A stretch of DNA of 64,000 bases from Myxococcaceae bacterium (GTDB lineage: Bacteria > Myxococcota > UBA727 > JABDBI01): assembly GCA_016000045.1 (NCBI GenBank), contig JAECQY010000001.1, forward strand, positions 169,194-233,193, given 5' to 3'. Each line of letters opens with the position of its first letter. Within the stretch, counting starts at the first letter, position 1. Under the pieces are notes generated by a model. That model was not told where the DNA came from. It saw only the letters and a program-made list of their open reading frames with translations, and made no database searches. Below, piece by piece: positions 1 to 57,570 of this stretch. The translations under genes were made by a program, and so were the position numbers.

Positions 1-504
1 CCCAACACATTCATCTCTCCTATCCCAACAAAGAAGTTTCCGAGACCCTGTTGGAATTTGGCTCCTCTCCTGACAGGCAAAGACTCTATAGCTCCTTGGC
101 AAATACTGGCTGAAGATCTGAAAGGCGCTTTGAGCGCCAACAACTTGGATGATTTTTGTTCTCGCCTCAAACCTTTCTTTGCCGATATCCCCTACGATTT
201 GCCTATTCCCTTAGAACGCTATTACCAAACTGTGTTCTACATGCTGCTCAAATTTATGGGAGCCGAGATTATGACCGAAGAAAGAACCAATATGGGTCGA
301 ATCGACGCGGTTCTCCAGACGCCTACGCACACCTACGTGGTGGAGCTCAAAATGGGCCGATCTGCTCAGGAAGCCTTGCAGCAAATCCGGCAAAAACAAT
401 ACGCTCAAAAATACCAACTCTCAGGCAAATTGGTTACGGCATTAGGGCTAGCATTCGATCCACAAACTAAAAACATTGTAGATCAAGCCTGGCAAGTGCT
501 GTAG
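1..504 (+). CDS. C-terminal fragment (5' end outside the window) of an AAA-ATPase-like family protein; PD-(D/E)XK nuclease domain (PDDEXK_9-like)
   Basis: The reading frame is open from base 1. Motif GRIDAVLQTPTHTYVVELK fits the D...ExK core of PD-(D/E)XK nucleases. Two other members of the same family lie at 23.5-26.7 kb. Confidence 0.6.
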   Translation, partial: PNTFISPIPTKKFPRPCWNLAPLLTGKDSIAPWQILAEDLKGALSANNLDDFCSRLKPFFADIPYDLPIPLERYYQTVFYMLLKFMGAEIMTEERTNMGRIDAVLQTPTHTYVVELKMGRSAQEALQQIRQKQYAQKYQLSGKLVTALGLAFDPQTKNIVDQAWQVL

Positions 505-595
505 CGATTGGCGAAATCGGATGTTTCTGGATGGATCTCCCCTCTCCTGTTGGGAGAGGGTTCCTCGTATGAGAACAGCCCTCCTCGACGTTATC

Positions 596-1094
596 CAGCG
601 GCGCGTCTATTGCAACAGAAGCAGGCATCTGATTTCTTGAAACATACGACTTGGCGATTGCTGTATTTCAGACGACCCCGTGAGGGGTTCAGGTGCCACA
701 GCCCAGCCAGAGGAGGTTGCTGAAAGCAACAGACGCTGGGCTGGGTTGTTGGGGTTATTGGGATTATTTGGATTATGGGTTATCTAGGCCATTTAGGTTA
801 TCCCGACATTTGTTGGCTCGACCACATAGAGAATATGCTCACAAAGGGAGTTGTGATAAAAGCCACGATTGTTTGGACCGATTGGGTGAATCCATCCGAT
901 TGTCTGAATGAATTCGGTTGGTGAGTCCATCCGGTTGTTTCAACCCAGCCCAGCGTCTGTTGCTTTCAGCAACCTCCTCTGGCTGGGCTGTGGCACCTGA
1001 ACCCCTCACGGGGTTGTCTGAAATACAGCGATCGCCAAGTCGTATGTTTCAAGAAATCAGATGCCTGCTCCTGTTGGGAGAGACGCGCTGGGTG
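596..1094. repeat. Large imperfect inverted repeat. Core arms 621-745 and 944-1068 differ at about 2 of 125 positions; a ~197-bp spacer lies between them, with nested hairpins and short direct repeats.
   Basis: The reverse complement of 944-1068 is near-identical to 621-745. The spacer carries direct repeats ggtgaatccatccgattgt and ggtgagtccatccggttgt. There is no transposase ORF; the small ORFs 508-1133 are judged spurious. Confidence 0.7.
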
Positions 1095-1195
1095 ATTTCG
1101 CGATTGCCCTGCGCAAGATACCGGCCCTCTTGAATCCTTGTGAATACGTCGGTACATACCACAAGTCTCAAAATTTATACTGTTTGGAATCGAAA

Positions 1196-2656
1196 ATGAA
1201 ATTATTTCTTTGGGCAATAGTCGGAGTGAGTTGTTTGGGTAGGGCTGAGCCGAAGCCTAATTTTCCCTGTGATTTGCCAATGCTTCGATTCTCCCTTTCA
1301 TCTGTTTCGGAGCAAGCACTCCCAGAACCTGCGATTCCAGCGGTGGTGACCACGGTGACGCAAAATGGGGGTGCTGTATCTTCCGTTGTGAGCGCGATCA
1401 CGGCGGTTGGCCCGACTCAAGTTGCTCAGACGGCTCGCTCTGGATTAAGCCTGGATTTACTCGCTTGCGACGACGGCCTGCCCATGCAGGAAGGTCCGCT
1501 GGATTGGGCAGATAGCCCCACCCAGCTATCTTTGGGTGAGGGTTCGCTTCAGTACCATACTGGAGCTGTTCTGGGGAACTGGGTTTTGATGGTGGGAGCG
1601 GTGGGCGTATGGAGTGGGGTTGCTTACAAGCTAGGTCCTGAGGCGGCGCAGTTTCCCGGGAGTTTGATACTGCCGGCCCTGCTTTTGATAGTTCCCACCG
1701 TGACTTCTTCGTTCACGCTGGCGCGAGATGGGGACAAGTCTTTACAAACAGCCGGCTCGGTCTCGATCCTGGTATCGCTGGCCAGCATCGCTGCGGTTGG
1801 CGTCAAGGTATGCCCTCGGTTTTTTAAGGCGCGCTGGGAAGACTATGAGCATGAATGGGTCGATTTATCCAACGCGCAAAGAGGTTGGGTGGCACGGTAC
1901 GGCGAGTTGTTTGATACCTACGCCGCGGGCCGACAAGGCTATATCGTGGTTGAATTGTTGACTTCGGTAGGCGTGGGGACTCTTAAATCGTATCAGATTT
2001 TAGAACAAAACTGCCAGGAGTTGTTATGGGCAGGCATGGTTGTTTACGATGCTTATGCCATTTCGCAATTGGCTTTGCGTCCCAATCGCAATCGTCATGC
2101 TCAAATTTTTTACAGCGCCATCGCGACACTTCAAGCGACAGCCCTGACCTTGCAAGCCATTGTTTCCGTCTCCGCTTCCGAAGAAACACAAAGCAAAGTG
2201 AAAACCGTGACTCAATCGGTCGTGGTGGTGACAGAGTATATGATGATGATTAAGACCTTGTTTGACATGGGTTTGCGCGTCAAGAGTTGGTACGATCGAT
2301 ACTACCGGCTCCATTCGGTTTCACTTCCGAAGCAGTCTGCTGGGTTGTCCACCCCGCAGCAAAATACGCCGTTGGAGGAGATGCTATCGGTTGCTTTCGT
2401 ACCGCCTTCGCAAGATACGTTGGTGGGTGAAATGCTACCCCTTGCTTGTGTACCGCTTTCGCTGGACTCCTTGGAGCCTATTGTTCCAGAGGCTTTGTCT
2501 CCGAGCGCATCGGTGTCGGGCGAAGAAAATTTGAAAGCGACTTTAGTCAGCGACTTTGGTTTCTTGGTCGAACAGAGCTCTTCAGTGGCTCCTGTGCCCA
2601 AAAGTTTAAATGAGGTCATTGCCGAACTGATGCAACAGGAGAGTGATCTTGAATAA
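1196..2656 (+). CDS. Hypothetical membrane/secreted protein with N-terminal signal peptide and TM segments; Pro/Ser-rich C-terminus containing a ~45-bp internal tandem duplication
   Basis: Long ORF with signal-like start MKLFLWAIVGVSCLG. Hydrophobic segments are present. No family recognised. Its end overlaps the start of the downstream DUF1566 gene. Confidence 0.4.
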   Translation: MKLFLWAIVGVSCLGRAEPKPNFPCDLPMLRFSLSSVSEQALPEPAIPAVVTTVTQNGGAVSSVVSAITAVGPTQVAQTARSGLSLDLLACDDGLPMQEGPLDWADSPTQLSLGEGSLQYHTGAVLGNWVLMVGAVGVWSGVAYKLGPEAAQFPGSLILPALLLIVPTVTSSFTLARDGDKSLQTAGSVSILVSLASIAAVGVKVCPRFFKARWEDYEHEWVDLSNAQRGWVARYGELFDTYAAGRQGYIVVELLTSVGVGTLKSYQILEQNCQELLWAGMVVYDAYAISQLALRPNRNRHAQIFYSAIATLQATALTLQAIVSVSASEETQSKVKTVTQSVVVVTEYMMMIKTLFDMGLRVKSWYDRYYRLHSVSLPKQSAGLSTPQQNTPLEEMLSVAFVPPSQDTLVGEMLPLACVPLSLDSLEPIVPEALSPSASVSGEENLKATLVSDFGFLVEQSSSVAPVPKSLNEVIAELMQQESDLE

Positions 2657-4046
2657 ACAATGGCTGTTTTGTTTGTTGTGGTTGTCCCGTTTTGGGTTGG
2701 CTGGATATTTCAATGTGAGCGAAGTGCAGGACTCCATGGCGAATGAAGCGCTTTTTCAGCTGATTTCGAATCAGACCTGGACTGTGAACCAACAACAAGC
2801 ATTGATGTCGACGGGTCTTCGCGCTCTATTTCAATCGGTTTCGCCGCAAATCAAGTCGATGCCCGATTACACCGGGCAGTTTGTCGCAAATTGTTCGATT
2901 TTTCTGAATCTGCGCATCGAAGGAGTCGCTTGTGACGTGACGTCGGTCTCGACAGCGATGAAGCCGAGCGGTTATGATTTGAACTCGGCCCTTCGCTTGC
3001 CTCTGGAATACGCGACGCAGATCACACAAAGCGACATCATCTTGGTCAATCTTTACGCGGATTGGAGAGGTAAGACGACGGCTTACTCGGAGCAATATAC
3101 GCTTGGTCCATTTGCTCGAATGCGAACTTGTACGTCAACGCTCAGCGTGACGGATTCACCCGAAACCCCAAGCGGTTTGCTGAGTTCGAGTGAGAGCCTC
3201 GAAGAGTCTCAAACAGCCGCCCCGAGTGTGTCCAAACCCTTCAGTCTTAGTCCCAATGTTCTGGTTTCGGATTCTCACAGCATGAGTTCTACGAGTTCTG
3301 GCAGTAGTGCGTCGGTATCACTTTTGGTTTCTTCAAGCGCGAGTTCATCCGGCTGGTTCAGCGAGTCCAAAAGCCTGACCGAAGCCTTATCACTCAGCCA
3401 GAGTTCAAGTATTCAGGTTTCGGACTCTCGCAGCATGAGTTCTACGAGTTCTGGCAGCAGTGTATCAGCATCGCTTTGGGTTTCTTCAAGCGCGAGTTCG
3501 TCGGGTTGGTTCAGCGAGTCTCAAAGCTTGAGCGAAGCCTTATCACCGAGCCAAAGCTTCAGCAAAATCCTTTCGGGGACTTGTAGTCCGAGTGTGTGGG
3601 GCAGTTGCTTGGGCAATTCTACGGGTTTGGCTTATATTTGGTCTGGTAGTGCCATTTATTCAAACCCAACCAATCAAGCATCGCGTTATACGACCCCTGC
3701 GTCCGGGGTTGTAGGAGATAGTTTAACCGGTTTGCAGTGGGAGCAAGCCGCAAGTAGTAGCACGATGACTTGGAGTGCAGCAGGGACCTATTGTGCGGGC
3801 CGTACGACGGGTGGATTGAGCGGCTGGCGTTTGCCAAACGTGGATGAGCTTCAAACTTTAGTGGACTACACCACCTCCAGCCCAAGTATTAACTCGGCCG
3901 CATTTCCCAGTACACCGAGTAACTATTTTTGGACCTCGACCCTCTACCAACCGAACCCAACTTCCGCGTGGCTCGTCTATTTCTTTCGTGGCGACGTCGG
4001 CTTCAGTGATATGAGCAATAATGGCTTTGTCCGTTGCGCGCGTTGA
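2643..4046 (+). CDS. Secreted DUF1566 (Lcl C-terminal domain, C-type-lectin-like fold) protein with Ser-rich linker; candidate DGR variable protein 1
   Basis: C-terminal domain carries the WRLP..EL motif and the ...FWTST...VRCAR terminus typical of DUF1566. An N-terminal module is shared with the ORFs at 52139 and 54905. The gene lies 27 bp upstream of a DGR-type RT. Confidence 0.7.
   Translation: MILNKQWLFCLLWLSRFGLAGYFNVSEVQDSMANEALFQLISNQTWTVNQQQALMSTGLRALFQSVSPQIKSMPDYTGQFVANCSIFLNLRIEGVACDVTSVSTAMKPSGYDLNSALRLPLEYATQITQSDIILVNLYADWRGKTTAYSEQYTLGPFARMRTCTSTLSVTDSPETPSGLLSSSESLEESQTAAPSVSKPFSLSPNVLVSDSHSMSSTSSGSSASVSLLVSSSASSSGWFSESKSLTEALSLSQSSSIQVSDSRSMSSTSSGSSVSASLWVSSSASSSGWFSESQSLSEALSPSQSFSKILSGTCSPSVWGSCLGNSTGLAYIWSGSAIYSNPTNQASRYTTPASGVVGDSLTGLQWEQAASSSTMTWSAAGTYCAGRTTGGLSGWRLPNVDELQTLVDYTTSSPSINSAAFPSTPSNYFWTSTLYQPNPTSAWLVYFFRGDVGFSDMSNNGFVRCAR
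3264..3570 (+). repeat. Tandem duplication, 2 x 153 bp (51 aa), encoding a Ser-rich linker inside the DUF1566 gene
   Basis: Two near-identical units start with gtttcggaytctcrcagcatgagttctacgagttctggcag. In protein they read SMSSTSSGSS...SSSGWFSES. Confidence 0.75.
3921..4046 (+). other. Candidate DGR variable region VR-A (3' end of the DUF1566 gene)
   Basis: Compared with the paralogous segment 5951-6076, differences fall in codon positions 1-2 with the third base kept in 15 of 18 differing codons. Upstream of the block, differences between the two genes are ordinary synonymous drift. Confidence 0.55.
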
Positions 4047-4073
4047 GGATGGGAGAATGAACAGGATGGGACT

Positions 4074-5621
4074 GTGAAAAAAGGTTGGCCAACTTGGGAA
4101 AGCGTCGATCGAGCTGCGGCTGCTTGCGCCAAGCGCAAGCGAAGCAGACCCGATGCGATTGTTTTTCGGGCCCGCTACACAGAAGAGGTGCTGGACTTGT
4201 GCCAGCGCATTCGATCGGGAGAATACCGGCCCTCCTCGGGGACGGTTTTCGTGACCGATCGCCCAAAGACTCGTGAAATACACGCCTCTCATTATCGAGA
4301 TCGAGTGGTTCACCACCTGCTCCATGACCTGATTGAACCGCACTTTGAACAATCGTTTATTAAAGATTCGTACGCTTGTCGTAAAGGCAAAGGTTCTCAT
4401 GCTGCGGTAGAAGCCTTGCAAAAACACATGCAGCGAGCGACCTGTTATGGCAAAATACGTGCTTATGCCCTGCATCTCGATATTAGAAGTTTTTTCTTCT
4501 CCATTCATAAACCCACCTTGCTGGCTATTTTGGAGTCGAAGCAATGGTTTCGTGAGCAGGCGGAATTGCGGCATTTGACCACTTTGGTGATCAATCACCC
4601 CACTGCGCTGCATGCGAAGCCCTTGGGGCCACCAAGCTCGTTTGAACGAATTCCTCCGTTGAAGCGGCTTGGAGCTTTGGGGGAGGATCGAGGACTCCCC
4701 ATCGGCAATCTGACCAGCCAGTTGTTTGCGAATATCTACTTGGATGTCTTGGACCAGATGATCAAGCGTACTTTAGGGGCTCAATATTACGTCCGGTATT
4801 CAGATGATCTGGTCTTGTTGCACCGCGATGCGGATCAGCTCGCGAGCTGGAAGCAACAAATCATCGAGTTTTTGCAGCAAAGGCTAAAACTGGAGACGCA
4901 TGAGAAAGCGCCAATTCATCCGGTGAGCGAAGGTGTCGATTTTGTCGGGTATGTCATTCGTCCTGCTTACAAATTGTGCCGTGCACGCGTGATTCGGCAC
5001 GCTCACCAACGTATTACCGAGCTCGAAAAACCGCTACACCCTGAAGAACGAGAAGGTTATCAGTTCTGGCGAGTACGTCACAAGGACATCGAGGCTTTGC
5101 GTGCTTGTTGGGCAAGTTATGCGGGTCATTTGAAACATGCCAGTGCTTATCGAGTGGCTCAAAAGTTGCTCAAGCGGCACCCTATCTCTCAATTCTATTT
5201 GCGCTTTGAGATTGCGAAGCATGGAATTTCTGTGGCTCGGCGATTTGCTTTGCCTAAGATTGAGTCTTGTTGGAATCACCAAATCCATTCGTTGCATCAG
5301 AGCGTCTCGAAACCAGCGCTCCGATCGGCAGAGGGTTCTGCGGTGTTGTTGGTTCAAGTGGGTCGTTATGCCGAGTGTCCTTTGCAGAAGGATGCAGAGC
5401 GTTTGGAACTTCGTCGGGGCTTACCGTGGCGTCGCTTGCCTGAGATCATCGACCGAGCGGTTCAAAAGGGTCTGAAAGTGGCAGTGGCTGTTGAGTTTAA
5501 AAAATGCACAGGGCGTATTAGAGCTCGTTATTTGGCGTACTGGGTAGAACCCGTGGCGCGGCCGGTACTGCTTTCTGAAGGTTCTCCCAAGGCTGTGCAG
5601 TTGGAATTCGGGTTTTCATGA
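4074..5621 (+). CDS. Reverse transcriptase, diversity-generating retroelement (DGR) type
   Basis: RT motifs are present in order: RPKTREI, RDRVVHHLL, YACRKGKGSHAAV, LHLDIRSFF, LPIGNLTSQLFANIYLD (the IGxxxSQ substitution typical of DGR RTs), YVRYSDDLVLL and GVDFVGYVI. There is a ~200-aa C-terminal extension. The stop overlaps the next start (ATGA). Confidence 0.85.
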   Translation: MKKGWPTWESVDRAAAACAKRKRSRPDAIVFRARYTEEVLDLCQRIRSGEYRPSSGTVFVTDRPKTREIHASHYRDRVVHHLLHDLIEPHFEQSFIKDSYACRKGKGSHAAVEALQKHMQRATCYGKIRAYALHLDIRSFFFSIHKPTLLAILESKQWFREQAELRHLTTLVINHPTALHAKPLGPPSSFERIPPLKRLGALGEDRGLPIGNLTSQLFANIYLDVLDQMIKRTLGAQYYVRYSDDLVLLHRDADQLASWKQQIIEFLQQRLKLETHEKAPIHPVSEGVDFVGYVIRPAYKLCRARVIRHAHQRITELEKPLHPEEREGYQFWRVRHKDIEALRACWASYAGHLKHASAYRVAQKLLKRHPISQFYLRFEIAKHGISVARRFALPKIESCWNHQIHSLHQSVSKPALRSAEGSAVLLVQVGRYAECPLQKDAERLELRRGLPWRRLPEIIDRAVQKGLKVAVAVEFKKCTGRIRARYLAYWVEPVARPVLLSEGSPKAVQLEFGFS

Positions 5622-6076
5622 AATTTGCACTAGGTTGCCGAATCGCTTTACTCTTGAATATTGGCTTGCTCGCTTGGCCCTTGCTGGCCATTTGTCGTTA
5701 TACCAATGAAAATGGAGCAGCTCTGACCCCGAGTGATCAGACCGTTCGAGACAGCGTGACAGGGCTAGTCTGGCAAAGAACTCAAGCTGCTTCGACCATG
5801 TCTCAAACGTCTGCAGCCAGTTACTGCGCGTCTTTGAATCTCAATGGCTTTTCATTCCGTTTACCGACGGTTCGTGAATTGTCCAGCCTCGTGGACTTCA
5901 ATACCTCCAGTCCCAGCATTGACTCAACGGCTTTTCCGGGAACCTCTTCTAACTATTTTTGGACCTCGACTACTTACCAACCGATCCCAACTTACGCGTG
6001 GGTCGTCGATTTCTATGGTGGCTTCGTCGACTTCAATGCTATGGGCGGTGATAACTCTGTCCGTTGCGCGCGCTGA
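5618..6076 (+). CDS. Small secreted/lipoprotein-like protein consisting of a single DUF1566 domain; candidate DGR variable protein 2
   Basis: Signal peptide MKFALGCRIALLLNIGLLAWPLLAIC, then a DUF1566 domain (FRLPTVRELSSL...FWTST...VRCAR). The start is translationally coupled to the RT stop. Confidence 0.65.
   Translation: MKFALGCRIALLLNIGLLAWPLLAICRYTNENGAALTPSDQTVRDSVTGLVWQRTQAASTMSQTSAASYCASLNLNGFSFRLPTVRELSSLVDFNTSSPSIDSTAFPGTSSNYFWTSTTYQPIPTYAWVVDFYGGFVDFNAMGGDNSVRCAR
5951..6076 (+). other. Candidate DGR variable region VR-B
   Basis: See VR-A. It shares the invariant flanks aactatttttggacctcgac and gtccgttgcgcgcgYtgaggatggga. Confidence 0.5.
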
Positions 6077-6185
6077 GGATGGGATGTTGACCCTTTGCCT
6101 CTTCGACCTTTTAAAAAGGAAACGGAAGACAAGGGGGGCGAGACAAGCTCATGATGGACGATACTCTCTGCCAATCGCTTGTCGT

Positions 6186-7142
6186 TTAAGGCAATTGAGC
6201 CGGGTCAATTAATCCAGCTTCGAGCTGCTCAATTTGCTCTCGCGGTAACTCGGTGGCGGTTGCGATAACAGACTTATCGAGCCCCAACTTTAAGAGTTTC
6301 ACCGCTGTTTCTACCTTGGCCTCTGCTTTGCCTTTCTCCAATCCGATAGCTTTGCCTCTTTCGAGTCCGACGGCCTCTCCTTCTGCTTGCCCCTGCGCCC
6401 GTCCTTTTGCTTCAGCGCAGAGATAGTAGTCTTGTTCTGAGACGCTTTGTTTGAGGTAGCGCCAATACTCGTTGCGTTCGGCATCGGTCATCTTGAGGAC
6501 TTGAAGGCGTTCAGCCACTTTGTCCATGCCTTTGGACTGAAAGTCTGCTCGGATTTGTTCGTTTTTGGCCATGTAAAGCCACTCATCGATTTCGCTTTGC
6601 ACTTCATCGTTAAATTTTGGAATGCAAATGAAAAAATATTCTGGAAACACATTGTAGATATCCAAGTTTTTCGAAGCGCGAGTGGACAGATGCAGCGATA
6701 CCGGGTTTTGGGTGTCTATTTCATGAATAATCGTTTGCCCAAAGGCCAAGGCGTGGTTCATCTGAGGGACTTCAAAATACAACAAGCTGATGTGAAAGAC
6801 TTTCTTAATCTGGGTAAAATCTTGACCTAACTCGAGACTGTCGATGATTCTGCGGGAAGTGTTAAAACAGGCTTTATGAGCAAAGTGGGTGGTATAAGAA
6901 CGTTCAATCTCAACCATGTATTTGACACCATTGGCGTCTTCTACCACCAAGTCTGCGATGCTTCGTTTTTGATTTTTGGCTTCTTTCTGGCTTTCTGGAT
7001 CGATTAAGGCCTTAATCTTAACGGGTGGGTAACCCTCGGTGGCTAAAAGAGCGGATAAGAAACTTTCAATAATGTCATAATCGGCCTGGTTTTTGAGCAG
7101 GTACTTAATGGCATAATCGAAACTGACTAAGGGCTTCTCCAT
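6186..7142 (-). CDS. Rpn/PDDEXK_2-family PD-(D/E)XK nuclease (recombination-promoting nuclease / putative transposase family)
   Basis: Motif DLVVEDANGVKYMVEIE fits the nuclease core. The C-terminal charged repeat region (AEAKGRAQGQAEGEA...) is typical of this family. Confidence 0.55.
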   Translation of the reverse strand: MEKPLVSFDYAIKYLLKNQADYDIIESFLSALLATEGYPPVKIKALIDPESQKEAKNQKRSIADLVVEDANGVKYMVEIERSYTTHFAHKACFNTSRRIIDSLELGQDFTQIKKVFHISLLYFEVPQMNHALAFGQTIIHEIDTQNPVSLHLSTRASKNLDIYNVFPEYFFICIPKFNDEVQSEIDEWLYMAKNEQIRADFQSKGMDKVAERLQVLKMTDAERNEYWRYLKQSVSEQDYYLCAEAKGRAQGQAEGEAVGLERGKAIGLEKGKAEAKVETAVKLLKLGLDKSVIATATELPREQIEQLEAGLIDPAQLP

Positions 7143-11885: not shown

Positions 11886-12088
11886 CTTGCTACGTTGGCT
11901 GCGCGCCTCTTCGAAATCGTAGATGTCAGGTAACTGCATAAAGAATAGAAGTGTAGCACACGAGGCTGTAGCTCAAATTATCCAAACGTAGGAGATAGCA
12001 AGCTTGAATGAGTGCCGAAGGCGATAGCTGCTTTCGGCCTGAACTAGAAAGCGATTTCATTCTTTGGGTGGATCATGTTTTGATTTTC

Positions 12089-12180
12089 TTAGCAATAAGC
12101 TCCAAAGTTTACGAAAGTAATTTAGAAGCTCATTTATTACAGTGCGTCTAAACGCCATAATTTATTTTGGCGGGCATCGC
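12089..12180. repeat. Intergenic repeat family A, copy 1 (~92 nt)
   Basis: About 85% identical to 57477-57570: gcaataagctccaaagtttacgRaagtaatt...gcgtctaaacgccataatttattttgRcggg. Confidence 0.6.
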
Positions 12181-12376
12181 TGTTGAACCCGGACAATTTC
12201 TTGACTGGTTATCTAAAGAAGAGTAGAGATTTTATCAGATTGTTGACGTTGCTAAAAAAACCAGTTTTTCTAATTCTCGATCTGGATAAAATCTAGTCCT
12301 ATAGTGGGGTAGATTACGATTTTTCCAACAGAATCAAAAGCTGTTTTATATTTCCTAGGGGAAGGTGAGGTGTCAT

Positions 12377-38128: not shown

Positions 38129-38406
38129 TTTTTATCTCCAAATAGTTTCTCAATGATATCATTTTTAATTATTTGTCTTGGAAAAATTTTAAATGAATAT
38201 AGAAATAAATACGATGAACTCTGTGAGATGCAGCCGCAGCGATTCCTGGCAAAATAAGTTATGGCGTTTAGACAACCGTTTAGCTTCGGAGACTTGGGAG
38301 CCAAAAGAATACGACTGCGATCGTCCTGTCCAAAGCTGCGAGGGCTTACACCTTGTTTGAATCGACTAACAATTTCTACCCAAGTCTAAAAAACTCGCGA
38401 GTCATT

Positions 38407-52138: not shown

Positions 52139-54502
52139 TTGCGAATGGCGATTAAGAAAAATCTAAAAACCCAAGCACGGTGCTTTAGGCAAGCAAAGCT
52201 GCTGGTATTCTTAATTTGGGGACAAACCGCTGTTGCTGCCTGGCTTAATCAAAGCCAGGTAACGAATGCCGTGGCGAATCAGGCACTAACCCAGCTTGTT
52301 TCGAACCAGACATTGCCTGCCGCCCAGCAAAAACAATGGTTCTCGACCGGATTGAAGGCCTTGTTTGCCGAGCTAACTCCGGCGATTCAAGCGATGCCAG
52401 ATTATACGGGCCAGTTTGTAGCCAATTGTTCCATTTTCATGAACACTCACATCGAGCAGGTTTTGTGCGAGATCAACTCCACGACTGCTTTGGTGAGACC
52501 CGAGAGTTGCGGACAGAGTTCCTTACTTCCTTTGGAATATGAGCATCAAATTACCGAAAGCGCGATTTTGCTGGTGAGTTTTTACGCTGATTGGACGCGT
52601 AAGACGTCGTTATCCTCCGAATCTTATGCCGTTCGTTTGTTCGATCGGATGCCAACGTGCACCGCGTCTGCGAGCGTTTCAGAGACAGGGCCAATACTCA
52701 GCCAAACCTTGAGCCCTACTGAGTCTACCTCTTTGAATTTTACGATAAGCCCAAGTGCTCCTGTGGTTTGGAACCCCGAGTGGGCAAATTGGCAGATAAC
52801 GACCGGTGTCTATCAAGACAACGCCAATCAAACGGGCCGCTACCTTGAATCGGTTCCAGGAGTTATCACGGATCAAATGACGGGTTTGCAGTGGCAAAAA
52901 GTAGGGAGTGCGCCTGCGGGTAATTGGACGGCTGCGCAGGCCTATTGCGCTAATTTGTTTGAGTCTGGGTTTGGGGATTGGCGTTTGCCCGCGCACGTGG
53001 AACTTCAGACTTTGGTGGATTATACGATGGATTGCGCTGGTCCCAGCGTGGATCTGAATTTTTTCCCAGGCGCTCAAACCAGCAGTTACTATTGGTCCTC
53101 GGACGCTTTACAGGGTTACCCTGGCAGTGCTTGGTGGGTGAGCTACGGTAGTAGTGGTGCCTATTACGCAGGCCTCGTTTGCAGCCAGGGTTATGGTGCT
53201 TGTTCTTCAGTGCCTGCGAGCGGCTTTGCCCGTTGTGTGCGACCCTCGTTGGCAGATCGAGAGATAGATCGTTACACCTTTAATAGCACGCAGGTTCTGG
53301 ACACCGTAACGGGCTTGATTTGGCAGCGAACGGTTTCTGGAACTTATAACTGGGGTGCAGCGCAGGCTTATTGTGCGGGTTTGAATCTGGACGGTTTGAT
53401 CTGGCGTCTTCCGAATGTTAAAGAGTTATCGACGCTTCTGGATGTTCGCATAGCATCTCCGGGTCCGACGATCAATACGACGGCTTTTCCGAGTACACCT
53501 CAGGCTGGGTTTTGGACATCAACGCCTTGTTCGTGTGCGTCTTCATCCGTCGCGTGGCTGGTCGATTTCATCTATGGTTCTGTGTCCTACACTGGCATGG
53601 GCACTTTTGACTATGTTCGTTGTGTGCGCTCTCCTCAGGTTTACAATCCCGAGTGGGCGAATTGGCAAGTGACAACGGGCGTCTATCGAGACAACGCTAA
53701 TCAAACGGGCCGCTACCTTGAATCGGTTCCAGGAGTTATCACGGATCAAATGACGGGTTTGCAGTGGCAGAAAGTAGTGAGTGCGCCTGCTGGCAATTGG
53801 ACGGCTGCGCAAGCCTATTGTGCTAATTTGTTTGAGTCTGGGTTTGGAGACTGGCGCTTGCCCACGCACGTAGAACTTCAGACTTTGGTGGATTATACGA
53901 TCAGTTGCACTGGTCCCAGCGTGGATCAGGATTTTTTCCCAGGTACTCAAACCAGCAGTTACTATTGGTCCTCCGACGCTTTGCAGGGTTACCCTGGAAG
54001 TGCTTGGTGGGTGAGTTACGGCACCGGTGCCTATTACGCGGGCCTTGTTTGCAGCCAGGGCTATGGCGTCGCTTGTCCTTCGGTGCCCGCGAGCGGTTTT
54101 GCCCGTTGTGTGCGACCTTCGTCGGCAGAACGAGAGGAGGATCGTTATGCCTTCAACAGCACCCAGGTGCTGGACACCGTGACGGGCTTAATTTGGCAAC
54201 GGATGGTTTCCGGAACTTACAGCTGGAGTGCAGCGCAGGCTTATTGTACGGGTTTAAATCTGGACGGTTTGAGCTGGCGCCTTCCGAATGTCAAAGAGCT
54301 ATCGACGCTTCTGGATGTTCGCATGGCATCTCCGGGTCCGACGATCAATACGACGGCTTTTCCGAGTACACCGCAGGGCGGCTTTTGGACATCAACGCTT
54401 TATACGTGTTCCTCATCCAACGCCTGGGCGGTCTTTTTCGATAATGGCTACGTCGCCTTCAATGATATGAGCTCTTCTTACTGTGTCCGTTGCGCGCGTT
54501 GA
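52139..54502 (+). CDS. Large secreted protein with shared N-terminal module and four DUF1566 domains in two ~874-bp tandem units; candidate multi-VR DGR target
   Basis: Four WRLP..EL motifs. Units 52763-53636 and 53637-54502 are near-identical except at the tips of domains 2 and 4 (FWTST...VRCVR/VRCAR). Confidence 0.65.
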   Translation: MRMAIKKNLKTQARCFRQAKLLVFLIWGQTAVAAWLNQSQVTNAVANQALTQLVSNQTLPAAQQKQWFSTGLKALFAELTPAIQAMPDYTGQFVANCSIFMNTHIEQVLCEINSTTALVRPESCGQSSLLPLEYEHQITESAILLVSFYADWTRKTSLSSESYAVRLFDRMPTCTASASVSETGPILSQTLSPTESTSLNFTISPSAPVVWNPEWANWQITTGVYQDNANQTGRYLESVPGVITDQMTGLQWQKVGSAPAGNWTAAQAYCANLFESGFGDWRLPAHVELQTLVDYTMDCAGPSVDLNFFPGAQTSSYYWSSDALQGYPGSAWWVSYGSSGAYYAGLVCSQGYGACSSVPASGFARCVRPSLADREIDRYTFNSTQVLDTVTGLIWQRTVSGTYNWGAAQAYCAGLNLDGLIWRLPNVKELSTLLDVRIASPGPTINTTAFPSTPQAGFWTSTPCSCASSSVAWLVDFIYGSVSYTGMGTFDYVRCVRSPQVYNPEWANWQVTTGVYRDNANQTGRYLESVPGVITDQMTGLQWQKVVSAPAGNWTAAQAYCANLFESGFGDWRLPTHVELQTLVDYTISCTGPSVDQDFFPGTQTSSYYWSSDALQGYPGSAWWVSYGTGAYYAGLVCSQGYGVACPSVPASGFARCVRPSSAEREEDRYAFNSTQVLDTVTGLIWQRMVSGTYSWSAAQAYCTGLNLDGLSWRLPNVKELSTLLDVRMASPGPTINTTAFPSTPQGGFWTSTLYTCSSSNAWAVFFDNGYVAFNDMSSSYCVRCAR

Positions 54503-54540
54503 GGATGGGATGTTGATCCTTTGACTTTTGACCTTTTAAT

Positions 54541-54607
54541 AAAGAAAATGGAAGGCAGTAGGGCCCGAAATAGGCACTGGCTCGTTAGCTTCTGGGAAAG
54601 ATACGTT
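54541..54607. repeat. Intergenic repeat family B, copy 1 (~67 nt), downstream of a DUF1566 gene
   Basis: aaagaaaaYggaaggcagYagggYYcgaaataggcWctg...agcttSTgggaaagatacgtt. Second copy at 57570-57636; partial match at 6106-6125. Confidence 0.55.
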
Positions 54608-54807
54608 GCATGAAGTTCTTGAGGAAGACATCGCTGCTGTAGATGTCAAGTCGTTTCTTGGTAAGCGCTGGTCCTTGATGGGAGCGCAATTTCGTGCGAG
54701 TCATAGGATGAAATAGTGGTTGTCGCGTTTAGGGAGAGCACTTAGAGTGTATCGAGAGAATTGCTTCCGATTTGAGCGTTCGTTTGTATCCTTGCCTGCG
54801 TCGGGGT

Positions 54808-54817
54808 GGGGGGGGGG
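54808..54817. repeat. Homopolymeric G10 tract (preceded by GGGGT) ~87 bp upstream of DUF1566 gene 54905
   Basis: Direct read: tcggggtgggggggggg. Candidate slipped-strand phase-variation site in a promoter/5' UTR. Confidence 0.5.
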
Positions 54818-54904
54818 TAAATATAGTCATTTTAACTGTTTCATATTTGAATTTAATAATATATACTTGATTCAACTTCGCCCCCATGAGAAGGGGTGTG
54901 AACG

Positions 54905-57445
54905 ATGAATCGGTATTTGTGCTCCTGGCTGTTATTGCTGTCTTTACCGGTTCAAGCGGGTTTTGTGCTTCGAGAAGGCTTCTCCGAAGTTCTGAGTCAA
55001 CAGTTTTCAAATCTGACGCAGCTTAAGAATCAAACGAGCTCTTTATCCAAAGAGCTTGTGACACAAAATGCCATGAGGGGATTATGGTCTCTCATTGGGC
55101 CTCATCTTCAAGCCTTACCGGGTTGTTGTAAGAAGCCTTTTAGCTCAAATTGCTCTGTGTTTTTCGATGCCGAAATTGATGAGGTTGTGTGTGATGCGCA
55201 ATTTGAAGAGGTTCAAGCAATTTCGACATCTTGCGAAGCCGAGCAACGGTTTCCAGTGGGTTATTTGGCGCAGTTACACAAGAGCAATATTCTCCAGACG
55301 CGCATTGTCGTGGGTCTGGCGCCTGTGCAACATCCGCAGGTGATGTATTGGTTGTATGATAAATTGCCACCGACGCTTTCACAATCTGTGACACAATCAA
55401 ATTCCATGAGTGGCCGCAACACTCAAACCGGCACAGATTCCGCAAGCCCGATGAATAGCACCACGGATTCTGTTGGCCCAACGAGTAGTTTTACAGAGAG
55501 TTTATTGTCGAGCAGGAGCGTGTCGTTTAGCTCAACTGCCACTGAATCATTGACTCCAAGCCATTCGGTTGCAACAGAATCGGCTAATCTGTCGCATTCT
55601 TTGAGTGGGAGCACTGTTCCGTGCACGAGCGAGAGCTTGTCTCATTCTCAAACTTTGAGTTCTACCCAGTACCCATCGTTCAGTTCAAGCCTGAGTCCCA
55701 GTGCTCCCGTGGTTTGGAACCCTGAGTGGGCGGATTGGCAAGTGACAACGGGTGTTTATCGAGATAATGCCAATCAAACGGGCCGCTATTTTGAATCCGT
55801 TCCGGGGGTTATCACGGATCAGATGACGGGTTTGCAGTGGCAAAAGGTAGGGAGTGCATCTGCGGGCAATTGGATTGCTGCCCAGGCCTATTGCACAGAT
55901 TTGTTTGAGTCTGGGTTTGGAGACTGGCGTTTGCCCACGCACGTGGAACTTCAGACCTTGGTGGATTATACGATCAGTTGCGCTGGGCCCAGTGTGGATC
56001 TGGGTTTTTTCCCAGGCACGCAAACCAGCAGTTACTATTGGTCCTCCGACGCTTTGCAGGGTTACCCTGGGAGTGCTTGGTGGGTAAGTTACGGCAGCGG
56101 TGCTTATTACGCGGGTCTCGTTTGCAGTCAGGGCTATAGCGGTTGTTCTTCAGCGCCTGCGAGCGGCTTTGCCCGTTGTGTGCGATCCTCATCGGCGGTT
56201 CGAGAGGTGAATCGTTATGCCTTTAATAGCACCCAGGTACTGGACACGGTGACGGGCTTGATTTGGCAACGAACGGTTTCCGGAACTTACAACTGGGGTG
56301 CGGCGCAAGCTTATTGTGCGGGTTTGAATCTGGATGGTTTGAGCTGGCGCCTTCCGAATGTCAAAGAATTATCGACGCTTCTGGATGTTCGTGTGGCATA
56401 CCCGGGTCCAACGATCAATACGACGGTTTTTCCGAGTACACCGCAGAGCGGCTTTTGGACCTCAACGCCTTATTCGTGTGTGTCTTCATCTAACGCGTGG
56501 TTGGTTGGTTTTGACTGTGGTTACGTCATCTTCAATGGTTTGAGCCCTGCTGGCTATGTTCGTTGTGTGCGCTCTCCTCAGGTTTACAATCCCGAGTGGG
56601 CAAATTGGCAAGTGACAACCGGTGTCTATCAAGACAGCGCCAATCAAACGGGCCGCTACCTTGAATCGGTTCCAGGAGTTATCACGGATCAAATGACGGG
56701 TTTGCAGTGGCAAAAAGTAGAAAGTGCGCCTGCAGGCAATTGGACGGCTGCGCAGGCTTATTGTGCTAATTTGTTTGAGTCTGGGTTTGGAGACTGGCGT
56801 TTGCCCACGCACGTGGAACTTCAGACCTTGGCGGATTATACGATCAGTTGCGCTGGGCCGAGTGTGGATCCGGACTTTTTCCCAGGCACTCAAACCAGCA
56901 GTTACTATTGGTCCTCAGACGCTTTGCAGGGTTACCCTGGCAGTGCCTGGTGGGTGAGTTATGGGAGCGGTGCCTATTACGCAGGCCTCGTTTGCAGCCA
57001 GGGTTATGGTGGTTGTACTTCAGTGCCTGCGAGCGGCTTTACGCGTTGTGTGCGACCCTCGTCGGCGGTTCGAGAGGTAGATCGTTATACCTTTAATAGC
57101 ACACAAGTTCTGGACACCGTAACGGGCTTGATCTGGCAACGAACGGTTTCAGGGAATTACAACTGGGGTGCAGCGCAAGCTTATTGTGCGGGTTTAAACC
57201 TCGACGGTTTGAGCTGGCGTCTTCCCAATGTCAAAGAATTGTCAACGCTTCTGGATGTTCACGTGGCATACCCGGGTCCGACTATCAACACGACGGTTTT
57301 TCCAGGCACGCCTCAGGCCTGGTTTTGGACATCAACGCCTTATTCGTGCGCGTCCCCGTCCGGTGCGTGGGGCGTGGATTTCGGTAATGGCGGCGTCTTC
57401 ACGGTTAGCATCAGCAATACTTACTATGTTCGGTGCGTGCGTTGA
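54905..57445 (+). CDS. Large secreted protein with Ser/Thr-rich linker and four DUF1566 domains in two ~867-bp tandem units; candidate multi-VR DGR target
   Basis: Signal peptide MNRYLCSWLLLLSLPVQAG. Units about 55718-56584 and 56585-57445. Hypervariable tips on domains 2 and 4. Confidence 0.65.
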   Translation: MNRYLCSWLLLLSLPVQAGFVLREGFSEVLSQQFSNLTQLKNQTSSLSKELVTQNAMRGLWSLIGPHLQALPGCCKKPFSSNCSVFFDAEIDEVVCDAQFEEVQAISTSCEAEQRFPVGYLAQLHKSNILQTRIVVGLAPVQHPQVMYWLYDKLPPTLSQSVTQSNSMSGRNTQTGTDSASPMNSTTDSVGPTSSFTESLLSSRSVSFSSTATESLTPSHSVATESANLSHSLSGSTVPCTSESLSHSQTLSSTQYPSFSSSLSPSAPVVWNPEWADWQVTTGVYRDNANQTGRYFESVPGVITDQMTGLQWQKVGSASAGNWIAAQAYCTDLFESGFGDWRLPTHVELQTLVDYTISCAGPSVDLGFFPGTQTSSYYWSSDALQGYPGSAWWVSYGSGAYYAGLVCSQGYSGCSSAPASGFARCVRSSSAVREVNRYAFNSTQVLDTVTGLIWQRTVSGTYNWGAAQAYCAGLNLDGLSWRLPNVKELSTLLDVRVAYPGPTINTTVFPSTPQSGFWTSTPYSCVSSSNAWLVGFDCGYVIFNGLSPAGYVRCVRSPQVYNPEWANWQVTTGVYQDSANQTGRYLESVPGVITDQMTGLQWQKVESAPAGNWTAAQAYCANLFESGFGDWRLPTHVELQTLADYTISCAGPSVDPDFFPGTQTSSYYWSSDALQGYPGSAWWVSYGSGAYYAGLVCSQGYGGCTSVPASGFTRCVRPSSAVREVDRYTFNSTQVLDTVTGLIWQRTVSGNYNWGAAQAYCAGLNLDGLSWRLPNVKELSTLLDVHVAYPGPTINTTVFPGTPQAWFWTSTPYSCASPSGAWGVDFGNGGVFTVSISNTYYVRCVR

Positions 57446-57476
57446 AGACGGGATTTTTACTTTTTATTTTTATAAA

Positions 57477-57570
57477 ATTGGCAATAAGCTCCAAAGTTTA
57501 CGGAAGTAATTGAGAACCCAATTCATGACAGCGCGTCTAAACGCCATAATTTATTTTGACGGGAACCGAA
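57477..57570. repeat. Intergenic repeat family A, copy 2
   Basis: See 12089-12180. Confidence 0.6.

Follow-up and report, generated by a model that had tools for sequence, protein, structure and literature searches.

A long inverted repeat beside a DGR-type cassette in a Myxococcaceae bacterium: a possible recent local inverted duplication

Bacterial MITEs, such as the Correia elements, Nezha, RUP and the ERIC-type palindromic units, are small, non-coding and intergenic, are bounded by inverted repeats and form long hairpins, and the element described here resembles them in all of these respects. However, the terminal repeats of typical MITEs (roughly 10-40 nt) are far shorter than its arms of 148 nt, and it differs further in having no target-site duplication, in having ends that are less conserved than its interior, and in that no copy or parent IS was found where these were searched for. 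Invertons, of which fimS, the Bacteroides capsule promoters and the cwpV and flgB switches of C. difficile are examples, likewise place a segment of ~200 bp flanked by inverted repeats upstream of a surface-type operon. Known invertons have repeats of roughly 9-30 nt, whereas those of the element are ~5-15 times longer, no invertase is visible and there is no convincing promoter in the segment.

A different kind of likeness is offered by the inverted duplications that arise through template switching at quasi-palindromes (the tandem-inversion-duplication type). These share with the element a near-identical, adjacent inverted copy at a single locus, the lack of a target duplication and a setting rich in short palindromes and slippage repeats, but a 15-nt direct repeat does not fit the simplest version of such an event, and neither clean microhomology junctions nor a parent sequence were found. 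Finally, the cis elements of DGRs (template repeat, IMH and hairpin/cruciform) are called to mind because the element adjoins a DGR-type reverse transcriptase (RT) with DUF1566 targets and has GC-rich hairpins with GNRA-like loops. In contrast to those cis elements it has no similarity to variable repeats or to the template repeat of a relative; in size it exceeds the DGR hairpin ~20-fold, and its position is upstream of the operon, not after a variable repeat. Our search of the literature on DGRs combined with an invertible promoter, and on MITEs in myxobacteria, found nothing relevant.

The inverted repeat and its spacer

The element, of 488 nt (~490 bp), lies inside the 690-nt intergenic region 505-1195 of the window, by which we mean the whole 64-kb stretch of DNA that was analysed (GC content 48.8%). 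It and the sequence next to it have the following features.

544-558, + strand: left copy of the 15-nt direct repeat CTCCTGTTGGGAGAG, outside the left arm and inside a hairpin at 540-561
601-748, no strand: left arm, 148 nt, with the outer 20 nt degenerate and the inner 74 nt identical to its partner
675-688, no strand: nested palindrome ACCCC-GTGA-GGGGT inside the arm, with a mirror copy in the right arm
699-743, no strand: nested palindrome CAGCCCAGC...GCTGGGCTG, enclosing GTTGC-TGAAA-GCAAC at 716-730, with a mirror copy at 946-990
749-940, no strand: spacer, unique and asymmetric, 192 nt
749-776, + strand: tandem array of period 9 (TTGGGATTA), 3.1 copies, abutting the left arm
878-937, + strand: loose tandem array of period 18 (CCGATTGGGTGAATCCAT), 3.4 copies, 67% matches, abutting the right arm
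941-1088, no strand: right arm, the reverse complement of the left arm with six mismatches
1068-1082, + strand: right copy of the 15-nt direct repeat, at the outer end of the right arm

The two arms (601-748 and 941-1088) are 148 nt each, 96% complementary and 192 nt apart. When the element was compared with the 64-kb window by blastn, the arm pair was recovered with E = 9e-66, and a 38-mer from the arm had two matches in the window compared to none in 100 shuffles; this was the only long, closely spaced inverted repeat in the window. Gapped alignment found no extension of the repeat past 601/1088. An earlier reading of this DNA from the sequence alone had described a smaller core, 621-745 and 944-1068, with about two mismatches; that core has exactly two, although the repeat itself is larger.

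Base-by-base comparison placed the six mismatches at 609, 611, 612, 619, 659 and 674 of the left arm, the partners of which in the right arm are 1080, 1078, 1077, 1070, 1030 and 1015, respectively. They form a gradient, with four in the outer 20 nt, two in the next 54 nt and none in the inner 74 nt (675-748), such that the inner 128 nt of the arms are 98.4% identical. The presence of four of the six in the outer 20 nt gave a binomial P of 0.004, and a Fisher P of 0.003 when set against the inner 128 nt.

The two halves of the spacer are unrelated in either orientation, and the spacer is thus asymmetric as well as unique; the same result led us to reject the idea that it is a decayed continuation of the palindrome. 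Five occurrences of GG(A/T)TTAT fall between 753 and 801, and this motif and G(A/G)TTG are both locally enriched. Two 19-nt direct repeats had been reported in the spacer, and these are indeed present, at 885-903 and 919-937, but they are identical at only 17 of 19 positions and belong to the period-18 array at 878-937. We also tested whether the base composition of the element is foreign and rejected this.

The 15-nt direct repeat CTCCTGTTGGGAGAG is exact, and 2e-4 such pairs would be expected in 700 nt. Its counterpart in the left arm, at 606-620, is a degenerate inverted copy matching at 11 of 15 positions. The hairpin that contains the left copy (540-561, CCCTCTCC-TGTT-GGGAGAGG) begins 36 nt past the stop of the upstream gene and is not followed by a T-run.

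The palindromes that had been noticed within each arm were confirmed in the sequence: CAGCCCAGC at 699-707 pairs with GCTGGGCTG at 735-743, and smaller palindromes occupy 716-730 and 675-688. Single arms folded better than shuffled sequences, with z from -2.4 to -3.4, and the whole element gave folds of -367 kcal/mol on the + strand (z = -28) and -340 kcal/mol on the - strand (z = -34). As palindromes in DNA give the same apparent structure on both strands, these z-scores are no proof of an RNA.

The source is a MAG assembled from short reads, and inverted repeats confuse de Bruijn graphs, so that a hairpin or chimeric join made by the assembler had to be considered. We regard this as highly improbable. 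The arms differ at six sites, which means that there are two physical copies and not one graph node traversed twice, and unique sequence runs on for kilobases on both sides inside a 249-kb contig. In addition, a Logan contig from an independent assembly (L001, run SRR9332771) has no mismatch to the window and carries the variants specific to the right arm. Its first base is 1040, and the first base specific to the right arm (1070) follows exactly k-1 = 30 nt later; a break at just this point is what a k=31 graph is bound to show when the 39 nt of 620-658 genuinely occur in two copies. The inverted repeat is therefore real and no assembly artefact. Run SRR9332771 appears in a paper on diesel and crude-oil enrichment cultures (PMC7012980).

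The neighbouring DGR-type cassette

The proteins encoded in the window are those of the MAG 'Myxococcaceae bacterium' (locus tags I8H75_). The genes closest to the element are listed below.

58-504, + strand: upstream gene, a 148-aa fragment that consists of a PDDEXK_9 domain only (E = 6.8e-21)
1196-2656, + strand: I8H75_00865, 486 aa, no Pfam domain, the first gene of the DGR-type cassette, with its start 107 nt past the right arm
2643-4046: Lcl_C/DUF1566 protein of the downstream cassette
4074-5621: RT of the downstream cassette, 3 kb from the element
5618-6076: second, small DUF1566 protein of the downstream cassette
6186-7142, - strand: Rpn-family PD-(D/E)XK (PDDEXK_2) gene, 'recombination-promoting nuclease/putative transposase'

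The upstream gene had already been recognised as having a PD-(D/E)XK domain, which the PDDEXK_9 match bears out, but the repeat does not sit directly after its stop as had been thought: the stop is at 504 and the repeat starts 97 nt further on. Genes for PD-(D/E)XK proteins thus flank the cassette on both sides (1-504, and 6186-7142 on the - strand), with no inverted repeats linking them. Over the following 12 kb there are housekeeping genes (ValS, MurJ, ribosomal protein S1 and TilS) and no recombinase or typed IS transposase.

The best solved relative of the RT is a 328-aa RT (8ub7_A, E = 7e-35), whereas retron RTs were matched only at E = 3e-4. A syntenic locus, L007, was found in MAG ELA443, the sole related genome in the GTDB set; it has the same gene set in the form of a canonical DGR, ordered as target, 132-aa ORF, template repeat and RT (L007 4259-8310). 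The template repeat, at L007 6652-6775, was compared with two variable repeats, and 21 of the 23 differences from one and 23 of the 26 from the other lie at its adenines; this adenine specificity identifies the system as a DGR.

The window lacks both the template repeat of L007 and the 132-aa ORF that precedes it, and no adenine-rich template repeat or avd-like ORF was found anywhere in its 64 kb. Upstream of the 486-aa gene, L007 has a target gene where the window has the inverted repeat. Judged by this comparison, the element sits in a rearranged locus that has lost parts. The target gene of the window ends 27 nt before the start of the RT, at the place where the template repeat of L007 ends, and the missing DGR parts appear to have been deleted when the 3' ends of variable and template repeats recombined (window 2643-6084). 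The ends of three DUF1566 genes (3930-4054, 5960-6084 and 54386-54510) have in common the 3' sequence GTCCGTTGCGCGCG(T/C)TGAGGATGGGA, extending beyond the stop codon, and differ at many positions upstream of it; they look like variable repeats with a common IMH-like end. In the two at 5960 and 54386 the likeness continues for ~60 nt beyond the stop. A template for the DGR may be present in another part of the genome, the paralogous locus I8H75_06240 being one possibility.

Two roles for the element in connection with the RT were tried and rejected. For the template repeat of the DGR, a scan was made with a consensus of the three variable-repeat-like ends, with A as a wildcard, which found nothing in 505-1195 and matched only the three ends themselves and the other DUF1566 domains. 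A retron msr-msd RNA was rejected because the RT is 3 kb away and is of the DGR kind, not the retron kind.

Other repeats were seen in the window. A 153-nt tandem duplication (84% identity) lies at 3241-3546, in the Ser-rich middle of the 467-aa DUF1566 target gene, and the two large DUF1566 genes within 52139-57445 (787 and 846 aa) consist of ~870-nt units, present four times with 78-90% identity and with an Lcl_C domain in each unit. A dispersed intergenic repeat with the core GTCTAAACGCCATAAYTTATTTTG occurs at 12078-12182, 38237-38273 (- strand) and 57467-57568, over up to 102 nt and at 83% identity. The genome therefore has at least one short repeat family, which is unrelated to the element.

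Copies, coding capacity and signals

Searches for copies covered the 64-kb window, related loci and public collections; the source genome is in no searchable collection, and of related genomes only ELA443 came up. In the window, blastn (word size 7) and nhmmer found no second copy or solo arm, nor was there any IS or second arm-like sequence. No copy was found by blastn, tblastx or nhmmer in five distinct related loci, L002-L007, the syntenic one included (L008 duplicates L002). An exact 21-mer from the arm (TTCTTGAAACATACGACTTGG) had no match in GTDB species genomes, JGI metagenomes or IMG/VR, and a second arm 20-mer had none in IMG/VR, scans of this kind being such that they miss any copy with even one mismatch to the probe. 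There was no BLAST match to the element in plasmids or phages. The parent, unduplicated sequence was likewise not found in the loci and collections searched.

The homologues of the downstream 486-aa protein have only 56-64% identity to it, and none of their loci (L002-L008) has a comparable repeat. A protein-based metagenome scan for an orthologous empty site returned nothing. The absence of the element from such distant relatives (56-64%) shows that it cannot be a long-conserved component of the operon, a comparison that does not address its recent history.

The ORFs of the element had no significant Pfam match (best E = 0.18, well below the family cutoff), and the translated element matched none of 5.8 billion protein clusters at E <= 1 (nine reading frames searched; three frames of the whole element were translated on the + strand and, on the - strand, three frames of the spacer plus 30 nt from either arm, with the pieces joined). 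No ORF has thus ever been called on a copy in the assemblies behind that collection. The sequence-only reading had described the element as lacking any transposase, and this held for both the ORFs and the searched frames, none of which matched a Pfam family or a protein. A decayed coding fragment was rejected as well, there being no Pfam, protein-cluster or related-locus match.

That reading had also proposed looking for target-site duplications around the ends. None of 3 nt or more was found at the four plausible boundaries, 596/1094, 601/1088, 620/1069 and 621/1068, even with a shift of 2 nt allowed. Downstream, 18 kb hold no typed IS transposase or recombinase.

Rfam 15 had no match at E <= 1 within 1-3000, and ARAGORN found no tRNA or tmRNA; a remnant of either was rejected. 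The element contains no intrinsic terminator and no known operator or origin motif was recognised in it. A promoter-like site matching at 9 of 12 positions lies on the - strand at 1144-1115 and points into the element. In the spacer, promoter-like matches reached 8 of 12 at best, as with TTGGCT-15-TATGCT at 813-839 on the + strand, and were no more numerous than in shuffled sequences.

Origin and possible roles of the element

The reading that we favour, tentatively, is that the element is a foldback repeat, formed when a piece of non-coding DNA bordering a decaying DGR cassette was recently duplicated locally in inverted orientation. In its support are the two distinct but near-identical inverted copies and the rearranged neighbourhood, together with a spacer that is unique and the absence of coding capacity, of an insertion footprint and of relatives among the sequences searched. 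Judging from its sequence, the element appears to stand outside mobile or RNA families, and nothing points to machinery of its own. One arm would have been copied in reverse beside the other, through a template switch during replication or through break repair, and the small palindromes and slippage arrays are signs of a stretch prone to template switching. The badly matching outer 20 nt may be an older quasi-palindrome that lies outside the recent copy. The sequence-only reading had left the choice between recent formation and strong constraint; the former is what a single copy and no conserved structure in relatives suggest, and so it was found within the window, the related loci and the public collections searched. 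The duplication event would still be a step deduced from the arms, the parent sequence not having been found.

Several features are awkward for a duplication. The arm palindromes (z about -3) and the flanking arrays are more organised than random intergenic DNA, which might mean that they serve a mobile or regulatory element as binding sites. The 15-nt direct repeat at 544-558 and 1068-1082 is not accounted for by a simple inverted duplication, and the mismatch gradient and the two arm-side arrays are left unexplained. The gradient would also suit an older repeat whose arms have been homogenised by conversion or selection.

Once formed, 148 nt of near-identical inverted homology would be a good substrate for RecA-dependent intramolecular recombination, and such recombination would flip the spacer and keep the arms homogenised. 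A transcript across the element would form a stem of ~148 bp, which would be a target for RNase III or a roadblock separating the downstream operon from the upstream fragment.

A second reading is a non-autonomous foldback transposable element, MITE-like or what is left of such an element, which would have entered the DNA in front of the DGR operon and been mobilised in trans by a transposase encoded elsewhere in the genome. Size (~490 bp), non-coding sequence, intergenic position and long terminal inverted repeats would all suit such an element, as would the nested palindromes and the arm-proximal arrays, which resemble subterminal binding-site repeats; the outer 20 nt form an imperfect palindrome that could have been a REP-like hairpin target for a core of 448 bp (621-1068), and the genome has other small dispersed repeats. 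We nevertheless consider this unlikely. The termini are the least conserved part of the arm (P = 0.004), the opposite of what is expected of ends bound by a transposase, and no target-site duplication of 3 nt or more was seen at any of the four boundaries. No second copy or solo arm turned up in the 64 kb, the related loci or the public collections searched, nor any ORF-called copy among the 5.8 billion protein clusters, and the first 18 kb are without a typed IS transposase or an IS with matching ends, the sole candidate being the Rpn-family gene at 6186-7142, which has no matching ends. The MITE that had been put forward as one candidate for the element was thus not borne out, and the second candidate, a large structured non-coding RNA, fared no better. 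Transcription as one long hairpin, or as two multi-hairpin copies of ~130 nt, serving as regulator or leader of the downstream operon, would be in keeping with the folds of single arms (z from -2.4 to -3.4, with nested stems and a GNRA-type loop, GUGA), with the arm difference at 674 (G or A), which retains pairing with U689 as G-U or A-U, and with the inward-pointing 9/12 site on the - strand at 1144-1115. The palindromes in the DNA alone yield the same fold signal, however, the arms differ at only two core positions, no homologues were found and the syntenic relative is without the element; with no Rfam match at E <= 1, no intrinsic terminator and no convincing promoter, we think an RNA very unlikely.

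An invertible switch, in which the 192-nt spacer flips by way of RecA or a recombinase encoded upstream of the window and so toggles the downstream operon for the membrane protein, the DUF1566 proteins and the RT, would give repeated recombination as an explanation for the near-identical arms. The ~200-bp segment flanked by inverted repeats lies 107 nt ahead of an operon whose products are variable proteins of surface type, and it has weak promoter-like matches, and, as the spacer is asymmetric, its orientation would matter. Yet no match in the spacer reached 9/12 and their number was that of shuffled sequences, there is no recombinase in the 18 kb downstream, and the syntenic relative lacks the element, such that a switch of this kind is quite unlikely. 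Inversion leaves k-mer content unchanged, and contigs are therefore blind to the orientation of the spacer. In its fuller form, a long-armed (148-nt) flip-flop switch, operated by homologous or enzyme-driven inversion of the spacer, would gate the operon of DGR-diversified DUF1566 surface proteins, and this we rate as improbable. About as doubtful, or slightly more so, is a protein-bound DNA site, be it regulatory or a cruciform or hot spot of recombination, at which the palindromes and the two arrays would be the parts bound, conceivably by the PD-(D/E)XK or Rpn-type nucleases encoded nearby; a cruciform recombination site had been the third candidate of the sequence-only reading. Genes of this type lie on both sides (PDDEXK_9 at 58-504 and PDDEXK_2 at 6186-7142 on the - strand), and the local enrichment of GG(A/T)TTAT and G(A/G)TTG and the 15-nt direct repeat at 544 and 1068 might serve such a purpose, but the link is purely positional, the upstream gene is a fragment, none of this is conserved in relatives and no known operator or origin motif was recognised.

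As it stands, the finding of what we tentatively read as a local inverted duplication is of low significance, being one further case of a long inverted repeat between genes of an uncultured bacterium, in a region that has been rearranged. It does illustrate that a MITE or an RNA cannot be diagnosed from near-perfect arms alone, and that footprint, conservation of the ends and copy number all need checking. Were the genome to contain many copies, they would define a new mobile element of the foldback type, one that does not duplicate its target. If both orientations of the spacer occur, it would be a phase switch on a DGR operon, which has not been described before, and were the flip-flop to be true, on/off phase variation would be layered over sequence hypervariation.
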